Assembly: GCA_033763455.1 (NCBI GenBank)
Contig: JANRKO010000019.1
Coordinates: 160,001 to 224,000 of the forward strand
DNA length: 64,000 nucleotides
Direction of reading: 5' to 3'
Source of the DNA: Polyangiaceae bacterium
GTDB taxonomy: Bacteria; Myxococcota_A; Polyangia; Polyangiales; Polyangiaceae
Each line of letters opens with the position of its first letter. The stretch's first letter is position 1. Shown here one piece after another: positions 1 to 14,520 of the stretch. The notes beneath the pieces are model-generated. The model made no database searches. It was given only the letters and a program-made list of their open reading frames with translations, and was not told the DNA's origin. The translations under genes were made by a program, and so were the position numbers.

Positions 1-62
1 TCCTCGGCCACCACGCGGCGCAAGAGCTCATCAGGATCTGGACGGTGGGGCTGGTTAGTCAT
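1..62 (-). CDS. kdpD: Sensor histidine kinase KdpD, N-terminus (runs off the left edge)
   Basis: Reverse complement reads MTNQPHRPDPDELLRRVVAE; RPDPDxLL is the typical KdpD N-terminus; lies directly downstream of kdpC. Confidence 0.8.
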   Translation of the reverse strand, partial: MTNQPHRPDPDELLRRVVAE

Positions 63-2855: not shown

Positions 2856-4667
2856 TCAGTGAGTTCCCAAGGTGTGCATCTGGAAGTGCTCAACGATGGG
2901 TCCGAGCGCGAGCCCCGGGAAATAGGTGAGCGCTCCTACGGTCAGCACGACGCCGATCAAGAGAGCCGTAAACGTGGGTGTATCAGTAGGGAATGTGCCG
3001 GATGAGGCAGGAACGAGTGTCTTTTTCGCCAAAGCGCCCGCCATGGCCAAGAGGGGCACGATCATGAAAAAGCGTCCAAACAACATCGAAAGGGCGATGG
3101 TCGTGTTGTACCAGGGCGTGTTTGCGGTGATGCCTGCGAAGGCAGAACCGTTGTTTCCCGTGCCTGAGGCATAAGCGTAGAAGATTTCGCTGAAGCCGTG
3201 AGGGCCACCGTTGTTGAGATTGTTCGTCGTCGCTCCGTAGACAGTGTCGGAGCCGCCGTAGGCGCTGCCTGGCCAGGTATTGAGTGCCGCAAGCGCACCT
3301 TCCTTGGGTATATCCACGGTGCTTGAGAGTGCCGTGAATCCGAGCACGCAAGCAGCCAAGATAAGAGTCGCCAACATCGCCATTTGCACCTCGAATTTCT
3401 CAATCTTCTTGCCGAGGTATTCCGGCGTTCGACCCACCATGAGGCCAGCGATGAACACGGCCAAGATGGCAAACATCAACATACCGTAAAGACCAGCACC
3501 GACGCCACCGAAGATCACTTCACCAGTCAGCATGTTAAATAGCGGCACAAGCCCACCCAGAGGCGTGAAGCTGTCGTGCATCGAGTTGACGGCTCCACAC
3601 GAAGCCCCGGTCGTCACCGTTGCAAACAACGCTGAGCTGGCGATACCGAAGCGGACTTCTTTGCCCTCCATGTTGCCACCGGGCTGGAGCGGTGTGGCGG
3701 CCGTCTCGATATTGGCGTTGGCAAGGTGCGGGGTTCCCGCTTGCTCCCCGACAGTGCAAACAACGACGCCCACGATGGCCAAAAAGGCCATGGCGCCAAA
3801 AATGGCCCAACCCTGCTTGGCATTGCCGACCATTTTGCCAAACGTGTGCGTGATGGCGGCCGGGATCATCCAAATGAGGAGAACCGTAAAGAAGCTGCTG
3901 AGCGCAGTTGGGTTTTCGAAGGGGTGCGCGGAATTCGCATTGAAAAAACCGCCGCCGTTGGTTCCGAGCTGCTTGATGATCTCCTGGGAAGCCACCGGGC
4001 CGAGCGCGATTGTCTGCTTACCACCTTCGAGCGTAGTCACCACGGTGTAGGGATCAAAATTCTGTGGGACCCCTAGCGCGAGGTAGATCACGGCGCCCAC
4101 CAAGGCTATCGGCAGGAGCACGTACAGGGTGGCGCGCACCACATCAACCCAGAAGTTCCCGATGCCATTGGCGTTCTTCCGCGCAAAGCCTCGAACCAGA
4201 GCGATGGCGATCCCGATACCCACGGCCGCAGACGCCCAGTTGTGGATGGCCAGTGCCACCATATTCGAGAAATACGAAAGAGTGACCTCCGGCGAATAGC
4301 TCTGCCAGTTGGTGTTCGTCGTGAACGACACGGCGGTATTGAACGCCAGATCGGGGCTCATTTGCTTGGCTCCGAAACCTTGCGGATTCAGCGGTAGAAA
4401 GCCTTGAAACCGCAACGCTGCATAGGTGAAAAGCAGCGAAACAATTGAGAATAGGAGCATGGCCACGGCATAGGTGGTCCACTTCATGTCGTTATTTGGG
4501 TCTACGCGGAGCACGCGATAGGTTCCTCGCTCCAGCCAGCCGAGCGGCGTGTGCAGGAACGTTTTCTCCCCTGAAAACACCCGAGCCATGTACGAACCCA
4601 AGGGCTTCGTAACCAAAAACAGCAGGCCAAAGAAAACGATACTTAGCAGAATAGCGGAAGTCGTCAT
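2856..4667 (-). CDS. kdpA: K+-transporting ATPase subunit A
   Basis: [23 protein letters not shown] and GNNGSAF selectivity-filter motifs. Confidence 0.98.
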
Positions 4668-4670
4668 GGT

Positions 4671-4757
4671 TCAGAACTTCTCCGGCACGAGCAGAGCGTA
4701 AACGAGGTACACCAACAACATGAGCGTCACCGCCCCAATCCAAAGCGTGTCAGTCAT
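4671..4757 (-). CDS. kdpF: K+-transporting ATPase subunit F (28 aa; not in the ORF track)
   Basis: MTDTLWIGAVTLMLLVYLVYALLVPEKF* matches the KdpF C-terminus YLxYALLxPExF; immediately upstream of kdpA. Confidence 0.93.
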   Translation of the reverse strand: MTDTLWIGAVTLMLLVYLVYALLVPEKF

Positions 4758-5093: not shown

Positions 5094-5624
5094 CTAAGGC
5101 AAACGTTCTTTCGGCACCAACCCCTGTGCTAAACGCACGTAGCGCGGCGAAAATACCTTATTCTGCTCCAGCTCTTCAGGCGTAAGTTGGCGAACCACTT
5201 TCGCCGGCCGACCAAGCACGAGCGTTCGTGGCGGCACCACGAGCCTGCCGACCAATAGAGAGCCCGCTCCCACCATCGCGCCTTCTCCAACAACCACTTG
5301 ATCCATCAAGATCGAGCCGAGCCCTATGATCGCTCCGTCACGGATCTCGGCACCGTGGATCATCACACCGTGACCCACCGTAACGTCGTTGCCGATAACG
5401 GTGTTGGAAAGGCCCGTCGTCATGTGCAACATACTGAGATCTTGAATGCTCGTGCGCGCACCGATCCGAATCGCGCCAACATCGCCCCGAAGCACGGCGC
5501 CATACCAGATACTAGAATCATCCCCAATCTCCACGTCGCCTATTATGGTGGCATTTTCGGCCAAAAATACCCCGCTGCCAAAGCGCGGATGAAACTCTGC
5601 GAAGCTCTTGACGAGGGCCATCAC
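5094..5624 (-). CDS. Gamma carbonic anhydrase family hexapeptide-repeat protein (YrdA-like)
   Basis: IIGDVEIG, WYGAVLRGD, IQD, VTVGHGVMIHG. Confidence 0.92.
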   Translation of the reverse strand: MMALVKSFAEFHPRFGSGVFLAENATIIGDVEIGDDSSIWYGAVLRGDVGAIRIGARTSIQDLSMLHMTTGLSNTVIGNDVTVGHGVMIHGAEIRDGAIIGLGSILMDQVVVGEGAMVGAGSLLVGRLVVPPRTLVLGRPAKVVRQLTPEELEQNKVFSPRYVRLAQGLVPKERLP

Positions 5625-7069
5625 ATCACCGGAAGTGCTCTAAGCTGGGCTTTCGTTTTCTGATCTTGCCAGGGCAGGTGCCGCGTGGGTTCCACGAGCT
5701 CAGCGGCCAAGGAATTTTTGAAAGCGCGCAGAATGCGAACCTCGCAGACTTCCCCCACTGGGCTCGTGGTTGCCCAAAAGTGCACAATTTCGTTGCGTTC
5801 GGTGCGGCCTGTGTAGCCACCGCGCTGATTCAACCCCTCCACCAACACCTGCTGAGTGGTACCGATAAGGCTCGTCAGGTGCGCAATCCGTGCCCGCTCA
5901 ACCACATCAAACAACTCAGCCAAACGCCGAGCTTTTTCGGGCTCCGGCACGTCATCTTCCAGCTTGAGCGAAGGCGTGTGTGGCCGCGGTGAATACTTGA
6001 AACCAAAAAGCCCAACAAACCCAACTTTTTCAACGAGCTCTAACGTCGCCTGAAAATCCTCGAGCGTCTCTCCCGGAAAACCGACGATCACGTCGGTTGA
6101 AAGAGTCATCCCAGGCACCGAGTCCCTGAGGGCTGTGATGCGCTCAAGGTACTCTTCGGCACTGTAGCGCCGAATCATCTTCTTAAGCAGGCGGTCGCTG
6201 CCTGATTGCACAGGCATATGCACGTGTTTGGCGAGGATCGGTATCTCGGTGTGTGCCGAAATCAAGCGCGCTGTAAGGTGGCGCGGGTGCGGGCTCGTGT
6301 AGCGTAAGCGCAAAAGGCCCGGCACTTGGCGAGCAATCGCGTGCAAGAGTGCAGGGAATTCGCTTTCTGCCTCGTTGGCTCGAAGGTGCGGAGCTTGACG
6401 GAATTCGAGTGCCGAGGGCGGTGCAGCCGGCAGGCTTCCGGAAGGGTCGCGGTAGCTGTTCACCGTTTGCCCGAGTAGCGTCACTTCCTTCACCCCCGCC
6501 AAAACCAGCCGTTCGATCTCGTCTAAGATCTCTCTGGATGGGCGGTAGCGTTCTGGCCCGCGAGTGTATGGCACCACACAATACGAGCAGCGCTCATCGC
6601 ACCCCTTCATCACGGTTACGAAAGCGCTCGGCATGACTTTGCCCGCCTCGGGGCGTGCTTGCAGGAATTCAGGTGCGTCGAGATCGAACTCGGTGCGAAC
6701 CTGCGGAGGCGACCCGGCCTCCGCGCGGGCTAAAAGGGTGGGAAGCTCCGCAATGTTGTCCGGCCCGATCACGATGTCGATCTGCGGGAGCGTCTTGATG
6801 AGGCGTTCGCCTTCTTGTTGGGCCACGCAACCGGCAACGCCAATCAGGAGGCCGGGCCGCTCACGCTTGAGCAGGCCCAAACGCCCCACTTCACTGCGTA
6901 GCTTCTGTTCGGCTTTCTCTCGCACGCTGCACGTGTTCAGGAGCACCACGTCCGCCTCTTCGAGCTTCTCGGTCGCCCAATATCCGGCGCCCGTGAGCAC
7001 TTCGGAGAGGCGCTCTGAATCGTGGCTGTTCATCTGGCAGCCGAAGGTAATGACACTGAAAGCGGGCAT
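5621..7069 (-). CDS. miaB: tRNA methylthiotransferase MiaB
   Basis: TFGCQMN, NTCSVREKAE, GCVAQ, radical SAM CDERCSYC, C-terminal TRAM-like domain. Confidence 0.96.
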   Translation of the reverse strand: MPAFSVITFGCQMNSHDSERLSEVLTGAGYWATEKLEEADVVLLNTCSVREKAEQKLRSEVGRLGLLKRERPGLLIGVAGCVAQQEGERLIKTLPQIDIVIGPDNIAELPTLLARAEAGSPPQVRTEFDLDAPEFLQARPEAGKVMPSAFVTVMKGCDERCSYCVVPYTRGPERYRPSREILDEIERLVLAGVKEVTLLGQTVNSYRDPSGSLPAAPPSALEFRQAPHLRANEAESEFPALLHAIARQVPGLLRLRYTSPHPRHLTARLISAHTEIPILAKHVHMPVQSGSDRLLKKMIRRYSAEEYLERITALRDSVPGMTLSTDVIVGFPGETLEDFQATLELVEKVGFVGLFGFKYSPRPHTPSLKLEDDVPEPEKARRLAELFDVVERARIAHLTSLIGTTQQVLVEGLNQRGGYTGRTERNEIVHFWATTSPVGEVCEVRILRAFKNSLAAELVEPTRHLPWQDQKTKAQLRALPVM

Positions 7070-7210: not shown

Positions 7211-8974
7211 ATGGATCCCGAATACGCGAATCTCGTCGAACTGTTCGAGCAAGCCTGCGCCAAGTTCGATGCTCGCGAGTTGTTCGGAACCAAGCGGGGT
7301 GGCCGCTGGGAGTGGATGACGTTCGGGCAGTTCAAGGCCGACGTGGATAAGTGCCGGGGCGGCCTCGCGCAGCTGGGAGTGAGAGCCGGGGATAAGGTGG
7401 CGATAATCTCCAATAATCGCGTGGAATGGGCGGTGTTGGCGTACGCCACCTATTCGCTCGGGGCGGTTTACGTACCGATGTATGAAGTACAGCCCAAGGA
7501 TGAATGGGCTTTCATCTTGCATGATTCCGACGCCAAAGTGGTGGTCGCAGCGACTCGGGTGATTGCGGAAACGTTGGAAGGCTTGCGAACCGGCTGTCCC
7601 AAGTTGGAAAAGATCATCAGCTTGGAGGGCCCCGGTGGCTCCCTCTCTTACGAAGCCCTGCTCAGCCAGGGCGCCAGAACACCCAAAGATCCCGTGTATC
7701 CAGCGTCGAGTGAGGTTGCCGGCTTCATCTACACGTCGGGCACCACCGGGATGCCCAAGGGCGTAGTCCTCTCGCACTCGAACATCTGCTTCGACATTTG
7801 GGCCTCATTTTCCTGTTTTGACTTTGGCCCGCTAGACCGCTCGTTAGCGTTTTTGCCCTGGGCACACTCTTACGGCCAAGTAGCAGAGCTGCACGGGCTC
7901 CTTAGCCGCGGCACCTCGATCGCGATCAACGACGAGGTACCAAACCTCGTCGCCAACTTGGCCGAGGTGCGGCCAACCGTGCTGGTTGCCGTACCAAGGA
8001 TCTTTAACCGCATCTACGACGGCATCCAGAAACAGATGGCGGCCAAGCCGGGCGCCATTCGCGCGTTGTTCAAAAAAGGCGTCGACGTAGCCGGAAAAAA
8101 GAGCCGGGGTGAGAGAATTGGCACGCTCGATAGCATGGCCCACGCCTTGGCGGATAAGCTCATTTTCTCCAAGGTTCGAGCCAAATTCGGCGGCCGGTTG
8201 CGGTTTGTGGTGAGCGGAAGCTCGGCACTCAACAAAGACGTCGCCATGTTCATCGATGCGCTCGGAATCGAGGTTTATGAAGGATACGGCCTCAGCGAAA
8301 CGAGCCCCGTGGCAGCGAGCAATTACCCCGGGCACCGCAAGATCGGCAGCGTTGGCCTACCGCTACCAGGCGTCGAAATTCGTATTGATAAGAGCGTTTC
8401 CGATGATAACCACCAGGGGGAGATCTTGATCAAAGGTCGCAATGTAATGCAAGGTTATCACAATCGCCCGGAAGAAACGGCCCTAGTACTCCCAGGTGAC
8501 GGTTACCTCCGCACAGGAGATCTCGGCTACCTTGATGAAGACGGTTACCTCTTCATCACTGGGCGCCTGAAAGAGCAATACAAGCTGGAAAACGGTAAAT
8601 ACGTGGCGCCGGCACCGCTCGAAGAGGACCTCAAGCTTTCGCCGTTCATTCTAAATGCCATGCTGTACGGCGCCAACCACGCCTACAATGTGGCCCTCAT
8701 CGTGGTCGACAAAGTAGCAGTTGCCGAGTGGGCCAAAGAAAATGGCGTTGAACTAGGGGACCTCTCGAAGAACCAGAAGCTGAACGAACTTCTGTTTCGT
8801 GAGATTGAGACCTATGGGTCTAAATTCAAGAGCTTCGAGCGGCCCAAGAAGCTCTTCATCACCGACGAAGATTTTAGTACAGAAAATGAGCTTCTAACCC
8901 CATCCCTCAAGATCAAACGGCGCAATGTGTTGGCCAAATATGGCAAACAATTAGAGGCACTCTATTCGGAGTAA
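7211..8974 (+). CDS. Long-chain fatty acid-CoA ligase (AMP-dependent)
   Basis: YTSGTTGMPKG, YEGYGLSET, TGDLG, LLTPSLKIKR. Confidence 0.93.
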   Translation: MDPEYANLVELFEQACAKFDARELFGTKRGGRWEWMTFGQFKADVDKCRGGLAQLGVRAGDKVAIISNNRVEWAVLAYATYSLGAVYVPMYEVQPKDEWAFILHDSDAKVVVAATRVIAETLEGLRTGCPKLEKIISLEGPGGSLSYEALLSQGARTPKDPVYPASSEVAGFIYTSGTTGMPKGVVLSHSNICFDIWASFSCFDFGPLDRSLAFLPWAHSYGQVAELHGLLSRGTSIAINDEVPNLVANLAEVRPTVLVAVPRIFNRIYDGIQKQMAAKPGAIRALFKKGVDVAGKKSRGERIGTLDSMAHALADKLIFSKVRAKFGGRLRFVVSGSSALNKDVAMFIDALGIEVYEGYGLSETSPVAASNYPGHRKIGSVGLPLPGVEIRIDKSVSDDNHQGEILIKGRNVMQGYHNRPEETALVLPGDGYLRTGDLGYLDEDGYLFITGRLKEQYKLENGKYVAPAPLEEDLKLSPFILNAMLYGANHAYNVALIVVDKVAVAEWAKENGVELGDLSKNQKLNELLFREIETYGSKFKSFERPKKLFITDEDFSTENELLTPSLKIKRRNVLAKYGKQLEALYSE

Positions 8975-9061
8975 GCCCAATACCCCCGAAACCTAAACTA
9001 GCGACGGAAGCCAGCTTTGATTTCGGGGGTTGTGCTTGTGGCACGTGGTCAGCTTTCGCCA

Positions 9062-10174
9062 TCATGCGCCACTCTTGCCGTTGGTGAGAAGCTGCGCCGG
9101 GAGCAGTGATTGGAGCCCGTCGGCCCCAACCACCACCTTCACTTCTTGGATGTGCTGAGCGATCTCTTTCATCGCTTCCAGCTCCTTCAAGCGCAAAAGT
9201 ACCGGGTTTGCCTCCATAACCTTGGCCGTGTTCGCCAACGACCGCGTAGCGGCCGTTTCTTCACGACGTAAGATCACGTTGGCCGCAGCTTCCTTTTCGG
9301 CCTCGATCACGCGATTCAACAGGGCTTTCATTTCACCCGGCAAAACCACGTCTTTGACACCCACATGTTCGATCTTGACTCCCAGCGCCGTGGTGCATGC
9401 CGTAACCCGTCGCTCCATGAAGCGTGTCATTTCGTCACGCCCTTCGAGCAATTGATCGAGGGTTACCCCGGCCACGTATTCACGCGCGGCAAGCTGGGCT
9501 GCCGTGTAGACAGAATCCCGTAGGTTCTGCACCTTGGTTGCAACCACCACCGGATCAGAAACAGCGTATTCGGCCGTTAACGTCAAACGCAACGTCACCT
9601 TATCTCGCGTCATCAATTCCTGACCAGCAATGGTTACTTCCTGGCGCCGCATATCCACGACGCCAATCTCGGCCTTGGCTCCAGGGTGCGTCCACAACTT
9701 GTATCGGCCCGGCGGCAACACAGAAACGAAGCGCCCCTGCTCGTAACGCAAGCCCATTTGGTAGGCCAATACCGTTACGTCAATGTACTCATTGGACGGA
9801 ATCAACCGCTCCAACTCTGCCGACATTTCCGGCAAAGGCTGAGTAACATCGAACACCGAAAGCTGCACAGAAGCATCTACGGTCCAATAACGGTGCACCC
9901 CCGGGCGCAAAAATGCCACCGGCACACCATCTTTGAACAGGACACCTCGTTCACCAGAACCAATCACAACCTCACGAAACCAAGCAGAAGGCAGTTTTGC
10001 CCGGACTTCCGGCAGGGCTGAAAACAGCAAAACACTGGTATCGAACCGTTGCTCAGTGAGCCGCAACGACCAAACCCGATAACGGCCCGGGCCAAGTGCA
10101 GCTACAGGTAAGCCGTCCTTGAAAAGAACCACTCGTTCGTTTAACTTCACACGAATCAATTTTGACCACAACAT
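9062..10174 (-). CDS. Slipin family SPFH/band-7 protein
   Basis: Three LxPGxY/H N-terminal repeats, GQELMTRDKVTLR, VKDVVLPGEMK, RREETAATRSLANTA; SD GAGG upstream. Confidence 0.92.
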   Translation of the reverse strand: MLWSKLIRVKLNERVVLFKDGLPVAALGPGRYRVWSLRLTEQRFDTSVLLFSALPEVRAKLPSAWFREVVIGSGERGVLFKDGVPVAFLRPGVHRYWTVDASVQLSVFDVTQPLPEMSAELERLIPSNEYIDVTVLAYQMGLRYEQGRFVSVLPPGRYKLWTHPGAKAEIGVVDMRRQEVTIAGQELMTRDKVTLRLTLTAEYAVSDPVVVATKVQNLRDSVYTAAQLAAREYVAGVTLDQLLEGRDEMTRFMERRVTACTTALGVKIEHVGVKDVVLPGEMKALLNRVIEAEKEAAANVILRREETAATRSLANTAKVMEANPVLLRLKELEAMKEIAQHIQEVKVVVGADGLQSLLPAQLLTNGKSGA

Positions 10175-10653
10175 GGGTCACCTCTTGGGTTGATGGACTC
10201 CCACCTTCGGCGTGAGCACCATGCCCGCGCCTTTGGAGATCGTCGATTGCTGGTATTTGCCGATACCGTCGGCTTTCGGCGAGCCCGCCTTTGGCCCTAG
10301 TAGTAGGGAGAACGGGACTCGGAAGATGTGCGGGGGCTCTGCAGACTGCTTGAGCCCGAAATTAGTGGCTCCAGAGGTTCAAAGCCCGGCGCCTAGGTTG
10401 AAGCGCAGTGTGAAGCCGCCGTAGCGGCCTCCGAAACGCTTCTCGCTTGAGCGTCTTGGGTCCGATGATTTGCGCGAAATCACTGCGATCTCACCCGGTT
10501 GCAGTCAGCGGGCGCCGAGGCGATGGCCGAAGCTTGCGAGCGAAATGTACGTGAGTTTGGGCAAAACTCGGGTCCGTTCGCCTTCCCCCAATGGCTGCGG
10601 AAGGGCTTTGAAAACCTCTGGAAACCTGGTGTGAATGCCTTTTTAAGGCCAGG

Positions 10654-10722
10654 CCCTTTGCTCTACCCGATGAGCTACAACTCCGTGAGGAGAAGATCGG
10701 ATTCGAACCGACTACCGAAGGG
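10654..10722 (-). ncRNA. Circularly permuted tRNA-like module (YrlA-type topology)
   Basis: CCCTT-CGGTA-GTCGG TTCGAAT CCGAT-CTTCTCC-TCAC-GGAGTTG-TA-GCTC ATCGGGTA GAGC-A-AAGGG: T-arm precedes D-arm and the acceptor-like stem is closed by a 4-nt loop. Confidence 0.72.
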
Positions 10723-10866
10723 TTCTGCCGTGACAGGGCAGTGTCATCCATGACAAGCATGCTTCCGGGACACAACTACCGGACATCCATCGGTGACTCA
10801 CGAGGAGACCAATGCACGCAGTGTTGCGCCGTTTTGAAGCAAGCTTCGCGGGATTCGAACCCGCGG

Positions 10867-10940
10867 CACACAAGGCAAGATTCGAACTTGCACTCTACTG
10901 ATATAGAATCAGCGGCCTCTACCTTTTGGGCTACATGTGT
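10867..10940 (-). tRNA. Atypical tRNA-like gene with CUA (amber) anticodon
   Basis: ACACATG TA GCCC AAAAGGTAGA GGC C GCTGA TTCTATA TCAGT AGAGT GCAAG TTCGAAT CTTGC CTTGTGT G: full cloverleaf, one U-U acceptor mismatch, U at 37, followed by CCG rather than CCA. Confidence 0.75.
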
Positions 10941-10993
10941 TAATTGGTTGCATACGGTTGGTCCTCTTGCTTTGAATATCGAGCCGGGAAATG

Positions 10994-11026
10994 AAAAAAG
11001 CCGCCGAGGTAACCCTGGGCGGCTTC
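10994..11026 (-). terminator. Intrinsic terminator / attenuator hairpin
   Basis: AAGCCGCC...GGCGGCTT stem running into a T6 tract; lies between the leader ORF and the tRNA-like array. Confidence 0.8.
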
Positions 11027-11050
11027 ACACAGAAACACTGCGTAAACGCC

Positions 11051-11179
11051 CTAGGGGGAGCCCCGAAAATCGCGAAAATTGCCGACTAAGCTGCGCTCGC
11101 GGCGTGCACCACAGACGAAAGCCATGCCAAGATTTGGCAGCTGTTGTGCTGTGATGGTGAAACGGTGGAAGTGCTTCAT
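11051..11179 (-). CDS. Putative leader peptide (42 aa; not in the ORF track)
   Basis: MKHFHRFTITAQQLPNLGMAFVCGARRERSLVGNFRDFRGSP-TAG; starts 11 nt after a -10-like box and ends about 25 nt before the terminator. Confidence 0.55.
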   Translation of the reverse strand: MKHFHRFTITAQQLPNLGMAFVCGARRERSLVGNFRDFRGSP

Positions 11180-11190
11180 GAGGAGGCCGC

Positions 11191-11218
11191 AGAGTACGGA
11201 TCTAGAAAAACAAGTCAA
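11191..11218 (-). promoter_or_regulatory. Sigma70-like promoter
   Basis: TTGACT-N16-TACTCT with an A-tract further upstream. Confidence 0.55.
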
Positions 11219-11304
11219 CACAATATCGCTCAGGCGTGTTTTTTTTACGAGGTGACGTTGCTCGCGATCCTCATTTCAAAGCTCCACCATGCAACACAGA
11301 GTCC

Positions 11305-11997
11305 CTAGAGGCGAGCCGTCCAGACGCGTTCAGCGCTGCCGGGGCGAGTCACGAACAAGCGCAGTGTTACCGGAGCCCGTTCACCCATGAGATAAAGCAC
11401 GCGGATTTTGTGCTCCCCGGGAGCCAGCGGGATGCTGCCCATCGCATTATGAGCCTTCCTGCTGTCGTCGTTGTTCACGACTTGGCGGCCATTAATCCAC
11501 AGGATGGCGGCGCCCTGGGTCTTTAACCGAAACTTATAGTTGCCAGCCGCCGAAACGGAGAATCTGCCAGTGTAGTTAATGGCAAACCAGTCGTAGCGCT
11601 CGGCGATTCCTGGGAAACCCGAAAAGTAGCGCTGAGCTACGTCCAAGCTATCCACGAACAAGCGACCTTGCGGGATGCACCGTTCAAGGCGCAGCAAAGA
11701 CACTGTGTTAGGCTTAACAAAGCACACTGTACCCGCGAGCGCTGCTTTGCGGCTGTGGCCAAACAAGGTGCTCCCCGACACCACAGGTACGCGACCACCT
11801 TTGTGACTCGCCCAACGCTCGCCCATGCCAGCGGGCGTGCCGCCTTGCTCGACACCGTACCCGTCCATTCTGTTGCGGCTAGCAGTTCGGATCCGTTCCC
11901 CCAACGACTGACCATGGGCCGCGCCAGCTAAGCTCAGCACTCCAAGTGCCACGCGACTCCCCCACTTCCACAACGTCCCGATCACCATGCGTTTCAC
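11305..11997 (-). CDS. Secreted PA14-domain protein
   Basis: Signal peptide; WFAINYTGRF..AGNYKFRL....GAILWING..VVNND and LAPGEHKIRVLY fit the PA14 pattern. Confidence 0.75.
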   Translation of the reverse strand: MKRMVIGTLWKWGSRVALGVLSLAGAAHGQSLGERIRTASRNRMDGYGVEQGGTPAGMGERWASHKGGRVPVVSGSTLFGHSRKAALAGTVCFVKPNTVSLLRLERCIPQGRLFVDSLDVAQRYFSGFPGIAERYDWFAINYTGRFSVSAAGNYKFRLKTQGAAILWINGRQVVNNDDSRKAHNAMGSIPLAPGEHKIRVLYLMGERAPVTLRLFVTRPGSAERVWTARL

Positions 11998-12151
11998 TTC
12001 ACTAGCACAAGTGCCCAGTGGACCGCGCCATCAGCTAAGACATGCTGTGGAAACAATTAAGCAAACTGCCCGAAAACCCTAGAGAAATCCTGACATTTCG
12101 AGTGCTGGTTTCCCTTGCTATGCCGGGAGCGGGCGTCTATCTCCGTGACTC

Positions 12152-13603
12152 ATGGATCTCAAACACTACGAAGTGGATCCGAAGAGTTACGACGAAATGT
12201 TCGACGCGAGCGGCGAGGTTCGGCCGGCCTATCGGGAACTTGCGCGGCGGCTCGGCGAAATGTCCGGTGAAGATTTCACCCGGCGGCAACGCACGGCAGA
12301 TATCTTGCTGCGAAACCAGGGCGTCACGTTCACCGTGTACTCGGACGACGCGGGCATTGAGAAGGTTTTTCCGTTCGACCCCATCCCGCGCCTGATGCCT
12401 GCCGAAGAATGGAGCCTGATTGAACGCGGCTTGATTCAGCGCATTGAGGCCTTGAACCTTTTCATTGCTGACATCTATGGGGATCAACACATCCTCAAAG
12501 ACAAAGTGGTTGATCCTGAGCTCATCTTAGGCGCCTCATTTTTCCGCCGTGAGATGATGGGGTTTAGGCCGCCTCGTGGGATCTATACCCACATCACCGG
12601 CACAGATTTAATTCGCGATGCCAACGGAAAATTCGTCGTCCTAGAAGACAATGCTCGGAACCCAAGCGGCGTGAGCTACGTGCTTGAATGCCGCGCAGTT
12701 CTGAAACGTGTCTTCCCGCTCTTGTTCGAAACGTACGGAGTGCGCCCGGTTGAAGATTACGCCAATTGGCTCCGCGACATGATGCAATTTGTAGCGCCAC
12801 GAGGCTCATCCAATCCAAGCATGGTGGTGCTGACGCCGGGCATCTACAATTCGGCGTACTTCGAACACAGCTTTTTAGCCCGCCAAATGGGTGTACCGCT
12901 CGTCGAAGGTCGAGATTTGGTCGTAAAAGATGGAATGGTGTGCATGCGCACGATTACCGGGCTGCAGCGGGTGGATGTTATCTACCGGCGCCTGGATGAT
13001 GACTTTCTGGACCCACTTATCGGTCGCCCTGATTCGGTATTGGGCTGCGCGGGGCTTTTCTCGGCGTATCGCAGTGGGGCGGTGACGCTCGTGAACGCAC
13101 CAGGCACAGGCGCCGTGGACGATAAAGCTGTCTACCCGTTCGTGCCGGACATGATTCGTTATTATCTTAAGAGTGAACCTATCATTGACAACGTTCCAAC
13201 CTATTTGGCAACCCGCCCGGATGAGCAGAAGTACATGCTCGAGAATATCCACGAACTGGTGATCAAACAGACCGACGCTTCCGGCGGCTACGGCATGTTG
13301 ATTGGCACGCACTCTACGGCAGAGGAACGCGAAGACTTCAAACGGCGCATCAAGGCTAAGCCCCGCTCCTACATTGGCCAACCCACTATCAGTCTCGGCA
13401 AACATCCCACAGTAATCGACGGTAAGCTGGAAGGGCGGTGCGTCGATTTGAGGCCTTATGTCCTTTATGGCGAGCGAATTTCGGTCATTCCAGGAGCCCT
13501 CACCCGGGTGGCACTCAGGAAGGGCTCTCTCGTTGTTAATTCAAGCCAAGGTGGTGGCTACAAAGATACCTGGGTGCTCACTGATAAGGGAGGCGCAGCC
13601 TAA
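12152..13603 (+). CDS. Circularly permuted type 2 ATP-grasp protein
   Basis: [55 protein letters not shown]. Confidence 0.93.
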
Positions 13604-14520
13604 TGTTAAGCCGAGTTGCAGACGCCCTTTATTGGATGAGCCGTTACGTCGAACGTGCTGAGCACGCAGCACGTGTCCTCGAGGTCACACGCCGCATGTT
13701 GATCGACGTTGAGCCCCTCGCCCCTCAAATGGCCAAACGCATTCGGGACGACGCATTTCGCAGCTTGGGCCTTCCGGGCGTCGACTTGCACGGAGCCATC
13801 TTCGACGAATCAGAGCCTGGGTCTATCGCCTCCTCTGTCTTCAGAGCCCGAGAGAATGCTCGTCAGGTGCAGGAGGTTATTAGCTCGGAGATGTGGGGCT
13901 ATATCAACGAGACGCACTGGATGCTCTCGGAGGCCCGTCGGGCGGGGCCTTCGCGTGAGCTGCCAGACCTCTTGGGTGAAGTAGTAAAGGCTGGGTTTCT
14001 TTGGGCTGGGGTTACGGATGCCACTATGGGTCGCGGGCCTGGTTGGTTGTTTATTCGCCTGGGCCAGTTCGTTGAACGAGCGGACCGAACGAGTCGAATT
14101 TTTGCGGCACAATGGGAGGCCATCGAGGAGTTGAGTACTGAGGCCATCCACACCTCGGGCGATCACTTTGCCTGGCTCACATTGCTTCGGAGTTGCGGAT
14201 CGCTTGAGGAGTATAGGAAGCGGTACCCAACACGCATGACAGCACGGCAAGTGGCGGATTTTATGCTGCTAGACGACACCTTTCCGCGCACCGTGCGCTA
14301 CTCAGTCTCAGTTGCGGCCGAATTTTCAAAACGCTTAACCCAGTTCGCAAGCCCCGAACGCGCCCGCGCTGAACGCGCGTTTGGGAGAGTCGCTTCTCGC
14401 ATCGAATACACCACCATCGACGAAGTTATGGAGACCGGCCCAGCTGTGTTCGTGAGAGGCGTTGCAGAAGAGATCTTGCTGGCGACAGCCGAGCTCCAGA
14501 GCGCGTATTTCTTGCACTAA
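13603..14520 (+). CDS. Alpha-E domain protein
   Basis: [38 protein letters not shown] (ER motifs). Confidence 0.92.
   Translation: MLSRVADALYWMSRYVERAEHAARVLEVTRRMLIDVEPLAPQMAKRIRDDAFRSLGLPGVDLHGAIFDESEPGSIASSVFRARENARQVQEVISSEMWGYINETHWMLSEARRAGPSRELPDLLGEVVKAGFLWAGVTDATMGRGPGWLFIRLGQFVERADRTSRIFAAQWEAIEELSTEAIHTSGDHFAWLTLLRSCGSLEEYRKRYPTRMTARQVADFMLLDDTFPRTVRYSVSVAAEFSKRLTQFASPERARAERAFGRVASRIEYTTIDEVMETGPAVFVRGVAEEILLATAELQSAYFLH

Follow-up and report, generated by a model that had tools for sequence, protein, structure and literature searches.

The locus described here lies in a 64,000-nt stretch of Polyangiaceae DNA, referred to below as the window. On its minus strand it comprises, in this order, a promoter, a short open reading frame (ORF) of 42 codons, a strong terminator, a CUA cloverleaf, a lone T-arm, a permuted tRNA module and a gene of the SPFH/Band-7 family, termed here slipin (Table 1). 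All the elements that the initial annotation had listed at this place were located on this strand. Together with a PA14-domain gene they constitute a 3-kb insertion that three congeneric genomes lack. In these genomes the AMP-binding and ATP-grasp genes are separated by 128-178 nt, and no slipin gene was found there. The distribution of the unit among genomes is patchy. The long hairpin at the end of the slipin gene is probably a two-way terminator, as judged from its sequence alone. A PADLOC search gave no match for the slipin or for the PA14-domain protein. For comparative purposes, 80 out of 207 loci confirmed by tblastn were kept (designated below by L and a number), and only one of them, L047 of Labilithrix luteola, belongs to a cultured carrier.

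Table 1. Features of the slipin locus, in the coordinates of the window
Feature	Position	Strand	Details
Inserted segment	8975..12050		~3.07 kb; slipin gene, RNA, attenuator and PA14-domain gene
Long hairpin	8983..9029		CCCCCGAAA...TTTCGGGGG; between the convergent slipin and AMP-binding genes; probable two-way terminator
Soluble slipin	9062..10174	-	370 aa, ATG 10174; two N-terminal beta repeats, SPFH domain, long helix
3' domain and slipin leader	10175..10650	-	conserved hairpin GCCGACGGTATCGGC (10273-10259); Shine-Dalgarno GAGG (10184-10181)
Circularly permuted tRNA-like module	10651..10727	-	closing stem, T-arm, acceptor-like hairpin, D-arm; resembles YrlA core
Anticodon-arm-like hairpin	10741-10725	-	CTGCC-CTGTCAC-GGCAG
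Conserved 5' domain	10728..10847	-	helix CTGCGTG / GATG-TC-CGG with inner hairpin (10821-10779); anticodon-arm-like hairpin (see above)
Lone T-arm hairpin	10848..10864	-	GCGGG-TTCGAAT-CCCGC, immediately 3' of the cloverleaf
CUA cloverleaf	10865..10940	-	ARAGORN; Rfam tRNA 50.3 bits
Intrinsic terminator T1	10994..11025	-	AAGCCGCC-C-AGG GTTA CCT-C-GGCGGCTT, then T6; -17.1 kcal/mol
Predicted antiterminator	11014..11056	-	stop-codon segment CCCTAGGGCG pairs with terminator 5' arm (GCCGCCCAGG), enclosing hairpin 11043-11027
Leader ORF	11051..11179	-	ATG 11179, TAG 11053-11051; 42 codons + TAG
Sigma-70-like promoter	11191..11218	-	TTGACT (11218-11213), 16-nt spacer, TACTCT (11196-11191)
PA14-domain gene	11305-11997		within the inserted segment

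The slipin matches the Pfam Band_7 family with an E value of 3.2e-29, while NCBIfam gave sub-threshold HflK matches only. Its AF2 model (pLDDT 88) has an SPFH fold followed by a long coiled helix, as is typical of the SPFH/stomatin family. The nearest structure is that of human stomatin (Z 16.9, rmsd 8.9 over 220 aligned residues, with 26% identity over slipin model residues 109-342), and the SPFH domain of the Pyrococcus horikoshii protein aligns over 104 residues with Z 16.7 and rmsd 1.3. The proteins of the SPFH family are known for organising membranes. The slipin shares the long C-terminal helix with the cages of stomatin, HflK/C, QmcA and prohibitin but differs from them in the lack of a membrane hairpin: the N-terminal membrane anchor of the family is absent, and the highest Kyte-Doolittle mean over 19 residues is 1.15. 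A second difference, indicated by the model, concerns slipin residues 1-125, which are predicted to form two beta repeats similar to the first SPFH beta unit of QmcA, HflK, erlin and prohibitin (Z 5.0-5.7), as if two copies of this unit had been added N-terminally. A Foldseek search with these repeats gave no match at E of 0.001 or below. The SPFH-like shoulder of MVP is also common to the slipin (Z 10-12 over residues 131-350), and the idea of a 'mini-vault' that would go beyond this shoulder was rejected, as the MVP repeats R1-R7 reach Z 3.3 at most, compared with Z 5.0-5.7 for the SPFH units. The proposed Shine-Dalgarno sequence and start codon of the slipin gene are present, and the start is conserved across orthologues; the frames of up to 520 aa upstream of orthologous slipin genes, considered as coding extensions, proved to be unconserved GC-rich frames.

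The non-coding stretch of about 770 nt between the terminator and the slipin gene was proposed in the initial annotation to be a tRNA-mimic RNA with a heavily paired domain. Results of our analysis agree with this: a 781-nt stretch folds at z = -3.59 relative to 20 shuffles, and both covariation and module position, described below, tie a conserved RNA of this type to the slipin gene. The CUA cloverleaf at its 5' side, called by both ARAGORN and the Rfam tRNA model, has an A1-U72 pair, a T6xT67 mismatch and U37, and does not have CCA encoded; thus, it is probably a tRNA look-alike rather than a functional suppressor. Its D-arm is common to the 76-78-nt cloverleafs located at the same place in L012, L016, L027 and L042, and no close tRNA relative of it was found. 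The lone T-arm, present as described initially, recurs in many Polyangiaceae-type loci and corresponds to helix 1 of our covariation alignment (93.3% of cells paired). In the 5' domain, helices 2 and 3 are paired in 94.0% and 82.1% of cells, with double changes in 11 of 12 pairs, and the pair G138-C213 is invariant in 38/38 loci. The hairpin that had been described as an Asp-type anticodon arm is real, but its Asp specificity did not stand: a hairpin with a 7-nt loop occurs at this position in 32 of 67 loci against a shuffled mean of 27.3, and the loop triplets vary.

The core of the RNA is the permuted tRNA module, which is partially matched by the Rfam YrlA model (27.4 bits, E 0.0057, model positions 23-85 of 114) and scores 79.6 bits with our own covariance model, R1, as the sole strong copy in the genome. 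The module lies 278-524 nt (median 368) 5' of the start of the slipin gene in 65 of the 72 Myxococcota loci with at least 800 nt upstream. The loci with the module at this fixed position span several Myxococcota families, and it was found in all six orthologue loci among 60 relatives. In the alignment of 38 loci, 93.1% of cells are paired compared with 69.9% after shuffling, double changes were noted in 33 of 36 pairs, and the covariation score of 0.639 (shuffled 0.210) was reached by none of 500 shuffles, the slid controls giving at most 0.127. Helices 4-7, which build the module, are paired in 86.8-99.5% of cells. The conservation and covariation upstream of slipin homologues, for which the initial annotation had called, are thus present. 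Another of its checks, a comparison with Rfam, gave the partial YrlA match below the gathering score and no full-length family match. A search of the region 8500-12000 with E values up to 10 returned nothing but tRNA, the partial match to YrlA and chance rows, with no match to T-box, GOLLD, ROOL or other large RNAs, and at gathering thresholds tRNA alone passed in the whole window.

The 3' domain contains no conserved ORF, and RNAalifold predicted only 11 pairs in it from an alignment that is too gapped. Its conserved hairpin occurs in 22 of 74 loci versus 4 of 536 background windows, usually 28-34 nt 5' of the slipin ATG and at 99 nt in the window. This hairpin, together with the constant location of the RNA directly 5' of the slipin gene and on the same strand, would fit a purely cis-acting RNA, a 5' leader processed from the slipin mRNA, whose tRNA-like parts are handles for RNase P, RNase Z and CCA-adding enzyme that cleave the transcript and set the stability or translation of the message, with no role as a partner of the protein. 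Such processing has a precedent in Mycobacterium smegmatis, where YrlA, with a stem of 7 bp, is cleaved by RNase P and acquires CCA (Chen et al. 2014, PMC4201824), and the acceptor-like stems of the relatives are 6-7 bp long. However, in the window this stem is weak, with 4-5 pairs and two TxT mismatches, and a handle would require the acceptor stem and the T-arm only, whereas the D-arm, the closing stem and the 5' domain of about 110 nt covary as well. In addition, a hairpin followed by a T-run is present 27-107 nt 5' of the slipin ATG, before the ribosome-binding site, in 24 of 67 relatives, which suggests a discrete RNA product with an end of its own; the RNA stretch of the window itself, as stated initially, has no second terminator inside. 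We therefore regard a purely cis-acting leader as unlikely.

The head of the RNA raises the question of its control. In leader-peptide attenuators, such as those of trp/his type or the stalling leaders of ABC-F resistance genes, a short ORF is followed by an intrinsic terminator and by an antiterminator whose formation depends on the position of the ribosome. Here, too, a short ORF with a promoter of its own ends just 5' of an intrinsic terminator, and a competing antiterminator is predicted; there is neither a run of regulatory codons nor a conserved peptide. The promoter, leader ORF and terminator proposed at this place are all present in the sequence, although a strict sigma-70 scan over 8800-11600 listed no promoter and a tool-run terminator scan of the same region did not list T1, perhaps, as we would guess, because of its C/C internal loop; the standard scan was replaced by promoter and terminator scans of our own. 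The pattern TTGACN-16..18-TANNN[TA] recurs 5' of the leader ORF in 6 of the 12 related loci that have an attenuator, versus 15 of 1974 background windows. As the promoter ends 11 nt 5' of the leader ATG, the mRNA would be nearly leaderless. Sequences resembling T1 stand at the start of the RNA cluster in 11 further loci. The attenuator is seen in 12 loci only; in the Kofleriaceae/Haliangiales-type loci an AT-rich box is located directly 5' of the 5' domain instead.

In these 12 loci, an ORF of 21-58 aa ends 48-62 nt 5' of the T-run of the terminator, and its stop codon is TAG in 11 of them (TAG accounts for 302 of 1079 stops of long ORFs in the source genome). The rows for L012 (T-run 937), L023 (T-run 251), L028, L040 and L044 were left out of the set on the grounds of a stop-to-T-run distance of 63-83 nt or of a location inside arrays. 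According to energy models, the antiterminator is the minimum free energy structure in 9 of the 12 loci, and weakly in a tenth, when the 3' arm of the terminator is withheld (-22.5 kcal/mol in the window). The predicted best partner of the terminator arm starts between -8 and +6 nt from the stop codon in six loci (at -3 in the window) and within the last 14 nt of the ORF in two more, while in L035, L039, L046 and L057 the antiterminator is not the best partner of this arm; the windows of this position test were picked after inspection of the data, and the loci are related to each other. The recurrent geometry and the predicted overlap of antiterminator and stop codon support the attenuator proposed initially and are compatible with a candidate translation-sensing device. 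Since the antiterminator strand overlaps the stop codon, the signal would be the general arrival of ribosomes rather than the availability of a particular amino acid. The conserved TAGGGCG motif could also act in RNA pairing alone, without translation.

An alternative reading does without any leader peptide: in it, the terminator ends an upstream transcript or belongs to a ribosome-free switch operated by a bound protein or RNA, the short ORFs being chance frames in GC-rich DNA. Several observations would be expected if this were so: random ORFs of at least 15 codons are frequent in such DNA, the leader ORF has no Shine-Dalgarno sequence, and the peptides of the 12 loci differ in length and show neither conserved codons nor any sequence relationship except in close pairs. 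One close pair differs by four synonymous and two non-synonymous changes, and the changes in the more distant pair L023/L030 are spread over codon positions as 16, 16 and 14, with no bias. However, the ORFs of L023 and L030 are equal in length (43 aa each), the terminator is separated from the upstream gene by a promoter of its own, the spacing from stop codon to T-run is constant, the preference for TAG exceeds that of the genome, and no Rfam family, including T-box, matches at E up to 10. In our view, this reading is improbable; by inference, the leader would be translated and would switch termination, and the RNA and slipin gene would be transcribed together.

The absence of rtcB and Ro60/TROVE genes, stated initially for the window, extends to the whole source assembly (93.7% complete), in which neither rtcB nor PF05731 was found. 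In five slipin-bearing relatives, a TROVE (PF05731) search gave no match in three, a weak match above the cut-off in one and a match below the cut-off in another. RtcB is encoded within 3 kb of the slipin gene in 3 of 80 related loci, on the slipin contig of relatives G038 and G040, and somewhere in the genome of all six relatives with an orthologous slipin, which is not informative because RtcB is present in 37 of 61 genomes overall. An HNH gene occurs in 16 of the 80 loci and is absent from the window, the source genome having one distant HNH homologue elsewhere (on contig C16). Arrays of up to 21 tRNA genes precede the unit in 21 of 67 loci; in L020, L038 and L041 there are 21, 19 and 18 tRNA genes upstream, and 2, 6 and 7 downstream, respectively. 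In the other 46 loci no upstream tRNA is detectable, and the module is present there too. Since the source genome has no RtcB, the repair context is inherited from the relatives only. The description of the module as 'stand-alone' holds for this genome but not for relatives in which the unit resides inside tRNA arrays with HNH and RtcB genes.

Starting from the observed anatomy, conservation, covariation, attenuator geometry and insertion, we favour, with little more than an even chance of being right, a reading in which the unit is one operon and a cut-down island of translation stress and RNA repair, led by the attenuator, with the RNA as a partner of the slipin oligomer. Transcription would begin at the sigma-70-like promoter and enter the short, nearly leaderless ORF. 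A ribosome at the UAG stop would mask the stop-proximal segment, allowing the terminator to form and transcription to halt. When ribosomes are stalled or scarce, e.g., upon tRNA cleavage or in the presence of a drug, the stop segment would pair with the left arm of the terminator, and read-through would yield the cloverleaf look-alike and the long structured RNA with its YrlA-like permuted tRNA body, followed by the soluble SPFH protein. By analogy with Y RNA and Ro60, we infer that this RNA binds the slipin oligomer, and it may display a tRNA-like shape to nucleases or to enzymes that handle tRNAs, serving as tether or decoy. The initial annotation had proposed induction by translation stress and a possible role of the RNA as decoy, scaffold or cargo.

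A bolder and quite doubtful version is a ligase-independent ribonucleoprotein in which a soluble SPFH oligomer, lengthened by its two additional beta units, would bind a 'two-headed' tRNA mimic of about 600 nt or enclose it, and would soak up nucleases that target tRNAs or store damaged tRNAs. An attenuator measuring the arrival of ribosomes at UAG would turn it on, and the CUA cloverleaf, in this genome the first product after the switch, could read the same UAG and would so lock the switch on. That the stretch is functionless debris of a decayed tRNA array, as the long arrays at the same place in relatives, the odd cloverleaf, lone T-arm and arm-like hairpins of the window and the lack of enrichment of the anticodon-like hairpin over shuffles might suggest, is highly improbable given the fixed position of the module across several families, its compensatory changes, its retention in loci with no detectable upstream tRNA, and acceptor loops of 3-8 nt and a lack of flanking tRNA halves, which oppose a covariation artefact of tandem identical tRNAs.

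Under the favoured reading of an attenuator-led operon, the locus offers a compact test case, with a single promoter, an on/off switch that can be read out, an RNA with covariation and a soluble protein expected to be easy to purify, and Labilithrix luteola provides a cultured carrier for such tests. If the RNA binds the slipin, a protein family of membrane organisers would acquire a non-membrane role.

The association of a Band-7 gene with a tRNA-like RNA, which the initial annotation had mentioned together with a link to RtcB and Ro60, is in print: a Band-7/SPFH gene with a 'b7a-tRNA' beside RtcB was described by Burroughs and Aravind in 2016, as cited in 10.1101/312249, and YrlA 'occasionally' adjoins Band-7 genes (Wang et al. 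2018, 10.1101/312249). Our search of the literature found no experimental test of this pairing of an SPFH protein with a tRNA-shaped RNA, predicted in 2016. The likeness of our unit to that system is one of description, as b7a-tRNA has no Rfam family. In both, an SPFH gene adjoins a tRNA-like RNA, here on the same strand, and the RtcB linkage is found in some relatives but not in the source genome. As far as that system is described in the accessible text, our unit differs in the composite nature of the RNA (cloverleaf, T-arm, 5' domain, permuted module and 3' domain), in the leader ORF and terminator that head it, and in its position in relatives, where it comes last in long tRNA arrays accompanied by an HNH gene. 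An RNA-repair locus that includes an SPFH gene is also known in Pseudomonas aeruginosa PA14, where PaFlo8 is encoded within the rtc locus (PMC13086221); the comparison is again by description, and the accessible part of that report mentions no RNA partner.

The relationship to YrlA (RF02553; PMC4201824) concerns its tRNA-like domain. The module keeps the permuted order of T-arm, acceptor-like hairpin, D-arm and a closing helix similar to an anticodon stem, the T-loop and D-loop motifs are conserved, positions 23-85 of the model are aligned in the window and in six relatives too, and all four helices covary. With 27.4 bits in the window and 27.2-45.9 bits in relatives, the scores nevertheless stay below the gathering value of 69. 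The Ro60-binding stem of YrlA (model positions 1-22 and 86-114) is absent, as the matches end at 23 and at 85-88, and while YrlA is encoded beside rsr (Ro60/TROVE), no TROVE gene was found in the source genome, and the module forms part of a far longer RNA.

The third relative is the L-array, a long, horizontally spread tRNA operon induced by translational stress, as in Anabaena, where such arrays are accompanied by HNH and rtcB genes (Santamaria-Gomez et al. 2021, PMC8421152). The unit described here is likewise patchy and inserted, and its relatives likewise have 18-21 upstream tRNA genes, an HNH gene and sometimes rtcB. A word search of that paper gave no mention of SPFH, stomatin or tRNA-like RNA, and the control reported in its accessible part involves direct repeats in the promoter, where our unit has a putative attenuator. 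The window, in turn, retains one cloverleaf instead of the long tandem array of tRNA genes that defines L-arrays, and no linked HNH gene. The unit is thus a variant of the predicted system of Band-7 and tRNA-like RNA, joined to tRNA islands of the L-array type, and it brings together three lines that have been treated separately: Y-RNA-like tRNA mimics, RtcB repair operons and stress-responsive, horizontally spread tRNA arrays.

All elements that the initial annotation had listed between 9062 and 11220 are present on the minus strand, and the overall function of the slipin-RNA unit that they compose is one that we infer. A strict promoter and terminator scan with a standard tool gave no entry for the promoter or terminator region of the window, so that the calls of these two elements rest on our own scans and on the comparison with relatives.

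Features of the slipin locus and genes flanking it
Feature	Coordinates	Strand	Remarks
Promoter-like pair	TTGACT 11218-11213, TACTCT 11196-11191	minus	11 nt between its end and ATG
Leader ORF	TAG stop 11053-11051	minus	42 codons; from sequence
Terminator	11025-10994	minus	-17.1 kcal/mol, then T6
CUA-anticodon cloverleaf	10940-10865	minus	ARAGORN; Rfam tRNA 50.3 bits
Lone T-arm	10864-10848	minus	directly after cloverleaf
Permuted module (T-arm, acceptor-like hairpin, D-arm, short closing stem)	10727-10651	minus	Rfam YrlA partial match
Slipin gene	10174-9062	minus	370-aa Band_7/SPFH protein; Band_7 E 3.2e-29
MiaB-like radical-SAM methylthiotransferase	5621-7069	minus	flanking gene
AMP-binding enzyme	7211-8974	plus	flanking gene
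Circularly permuted ATP-grasp gene with Alpha-E gene	12152-14520	plus	flanking genes

Slipin orthologues of 57-70% identity were found in 6 of 60 relatives, and in all six loci a partial YrlA match lies about 430 nt upstream of the slipin gene. A one-genome-per-species scan revealed 207 relatives, the best 80 of which were kept for locus comparisons; these are all Myxococcota, chiefly MAGs of Polyangiaceae, Kofleriaceae and Haliangiales, and include Labilithrix luteola. The check proposed in the initial annotation, a covariance model upstream of slipin homologues, indicates that the module is both conserved and covarying. Among these best 80 of 207, 72 loci have a defined slipin start with 800 nt or more of upstream sequence, and in 65 of them the model matched 278-524 nt ahead of that start (median 368); no match at that position was found in L028, L029, L050, L073, L075, L078 and L089. 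The consensus structure of 38 loci spans the T-arm, both helices of the 5' domain and all four of the module. In it, 93.1% of cells are paired (69.9% in shuffles), 33 of 36 pairs show double changes, and the covariation score is 0.639 vs. 0.210 for shuffles, none of 500 of which reached it, with slid controls at 0.127 or less. The frames open upstream of orthologous slipin genes are not conserved, and this stretch is therefore non-coding. The source genome has one copy of the module. Labilithrix luteola (L047) has three in tandem before a single slipin gene (1719-1823, 2128-2219 and 2523-2594; 52, 50 and 45 bits), with an HNH gene downstream (4186-4677).

The RNA is headed by what is probably a ribosome- or translation-sensing attenuator. 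All loci were scanned for a hairpin and T-run preceded by a short ORF, and those with the stop 48-62 nt from the T-run were kept (n=12: the window, L012, L023, L027, L030, L032, L035, L039, L046, L049, L057 and L065); five further hits with longer distances or sites inside arrays were left out. The leader stop is TAG in 11 of the 12, within a TAGGGCGG-like motif. In minimum-energy folds without the right arm of the terminator, this motif pairs with the left arm in nine loci, and weakly in a tenth, by covarying pairings (GGGCGG/CCGCCC, GGACGG/CCGTCC, AGAGCG/CGCTCT). Within the 150 nt upstream, the sequence that pairs best with the left arm begins -8 to +6 nt from the stop in 6/12 loci (binomial 8e-4, p = 15/140, for a window picked after seeing the data and for loci that are related), and is located in the final 14 nt of the ORF in two more. 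A promoter of the form TTGACN-16..18-TANNN[TA] precedes the leader ORF in 6/12 loci vs. 15 of 1974 background windows, and such a dedicated promoter argues against a terminator that serves only to close the upstream gene. The position of the stop, the pairing of motif and arm and the own promoter make a ribosome-sensing attenuator the best reading. The leader peptides are unconserved: the near-identical L035 and L039 leaders differ by four synonymous and two non-synonymous changes, and those of L023 and L030, equal in length (43 aa), have 17 residues in common with no codon-position bias.

The cloverleaf of the window appears to be a tRNA look-alike and not a working suppressor. It carries A1-U72 together with a T6xT67 mismatch and U37, CCA is not encoded, and a search for a close tRNA relative found none; TAG serves as an ordinary stop in the source genome (302 of 1079 long-ORF stops). 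Its D-arm is shared with cloverleafs of 76-78 nt at the equivalent site in L012, L016, L027 and L042, which have Leu-type anticodons without a long variable arm, and in other loci the slot is filled by a standard tRNA (Glu, Leu, Pro, Tyr or Ser) 96-166 nt before the module. The leader stop (11051-11053) matches the CUA anticodon (10904-10906) of this first RNA gene behind the attenuator, and in-frame read-through of the stop would run to a TAA immediately 5' of the cloverleaf. Only this locus has the CUA anticodon; TAG leader stops are general (11/12 loci).

Other RNA parts are less general. The hairpin at 10741-10725, previously described as Asp-type, is real, but its loop triplets differ between loci and the Asp type does not generalise; a 7-nt-loop hairpin occurs at this site in 32/67 loci vs. 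27.3 in shuffles. A similar hairpin directly 3' of the module is enriched (46/67 vs. 18.8 shuffled), with a CUNNNA loop in 21. In ten loci (L022, L023, L027, L030, L034, L040, L047, L052, L053, L055), the 3' strand of the closing stem can pair downstream instead, forming an anticodon-arm-like hairpin just after the module, the two folds being mutually exclusive. The 3' domain, from the module to the slipin start, aligns poorly across loci. The conserved hairpin GCCGACGGYATCGGC lies 28-34 nt before the ATG in 22/74 loci vs. 4/536 background windows, and 99 nt before it in the window. A hairpin and T-run 27-107 nt before the slipin ATG, present in 24/67 loci, is absent from the window, in agreement with the earlier report of no second terminator. 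The Kofleriaceae/Haliangiales-type loci (L058-L090) showed no cloverleaf, T-arm or attenuator; they carry a conserved AT-rich box, e.g., TTGAAAAAATTAGTTCTG, immediately 5' of the 5' domain, about 130 nt before the module, and their slipin gene has an insertion of about 120 aa.

In three congeneric genomes, 128-178 nt separate the AMP-binding gene from the ATP-grasp gene, which indicates that about 8975-12050 of the window is an insertion. It also holds, upstream of the attenuator, a gene of a 230-aa protein that has a PA14 domain and an N-terminus resembling a signal peptide (11305-11997, minus strand), no homologue of which was seen next to the other 80 loci. The flanking genes keep their synteny throughout the genus and have no relation to the insertion. 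The reported lack of rtcB and Ro60/TROVE genes extends from the window to the whole source assembly (93.7% complete). Thus, the description of the module as stand-alone holds for this genome, but not for relatives, where tRNA arrays, HNH and RtcB genes are found nearby. Same-strand tRNA genes lie upstream in 21/67 loci (as many as 21 within 2.5 kb), with further ones behind the slipin gene; among the best 80 of 207, an HNH endonuclease gene is within 3 kb in 16 loci and RtcB in three. RtcB is encoded by all five slipin-bearing relatives tested, in two cases on the same contig as slipin, against a background of 37/61 genomes. An RtcB gene fragment precedes the leader ORF and terminator in L012 (47-607; T-run at 859), and a full gene lies within the tRNA array in L022 (962-2128), so that RtcB may occur on either side of the switch.

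The AF2 model of slipin (pLDDT 88) comprises two five-strand beta repeats (1-60 and 62-125), followed by an SPFH domain and a helix (280-341). Its closest structure is human stomatin (Z 16.9), followed by HflK/C, prohibitin and QmcA; the match to MVP (Z 10-12) spans the MVP shoulder and cap helix. The N-terminal repeats alone are nearest to the first beta unit of SPFH proteins (Z 5.0-5.7), and their likeness to MVP repeats was rejected (Z 3.3). No hydrophobic segment was found along the sequence.

SPFH modules were reportedly described by Burroughs and Aravind in 2016 as scaffolds with cognate tRNA-like RNA. The link between Band-7, RtcB and tRNA-like RNA that the initial annotation mentioned is in print: as Wang et al. 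2018 (10.1101/312249) note in their Discussion, citing Burroughs and Aravind 2016, some RtcB genes lie next to those of a Band-7 protein and a 'b7a-tRNA', and YrlA occasionally adjoins a Band-7 protein. The P. aeruginosa rtc locus includes the SPFH gene PaFlo8 (2026 paper, PMC13086221). YrlA is a substrate of the modifying enzymes TruB and DusA, and that of M. smegmatis, with a 7-bp acceptor stem, undergoes RNase P cleavage and CCA addition (Chen et al. 2014, PMC4201824). Our module aligns to positions 23-85 of 114 of the YrlA model (Rfam, 27.4 bits, E 0.0057; gathering score 69), and the element is not a YrlA family member, since both the Ro60 stem and an rsr gene are missing. In Anabaena, translational stress induces long tRNA arrays (L-arrays) that have spread horizontally and are linked to an HNH gene and to rtcB (Santamaria-Gomez et al. 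2021, PMC8421152); a word search of that paper found no mention of SPFH or tRNA-like RNA. The slipin-RNA element thus represents a reduced variant of the Band-7 plus tRNA-like RNA system that is specific to this lineage and is joined to islands of the L-array type.
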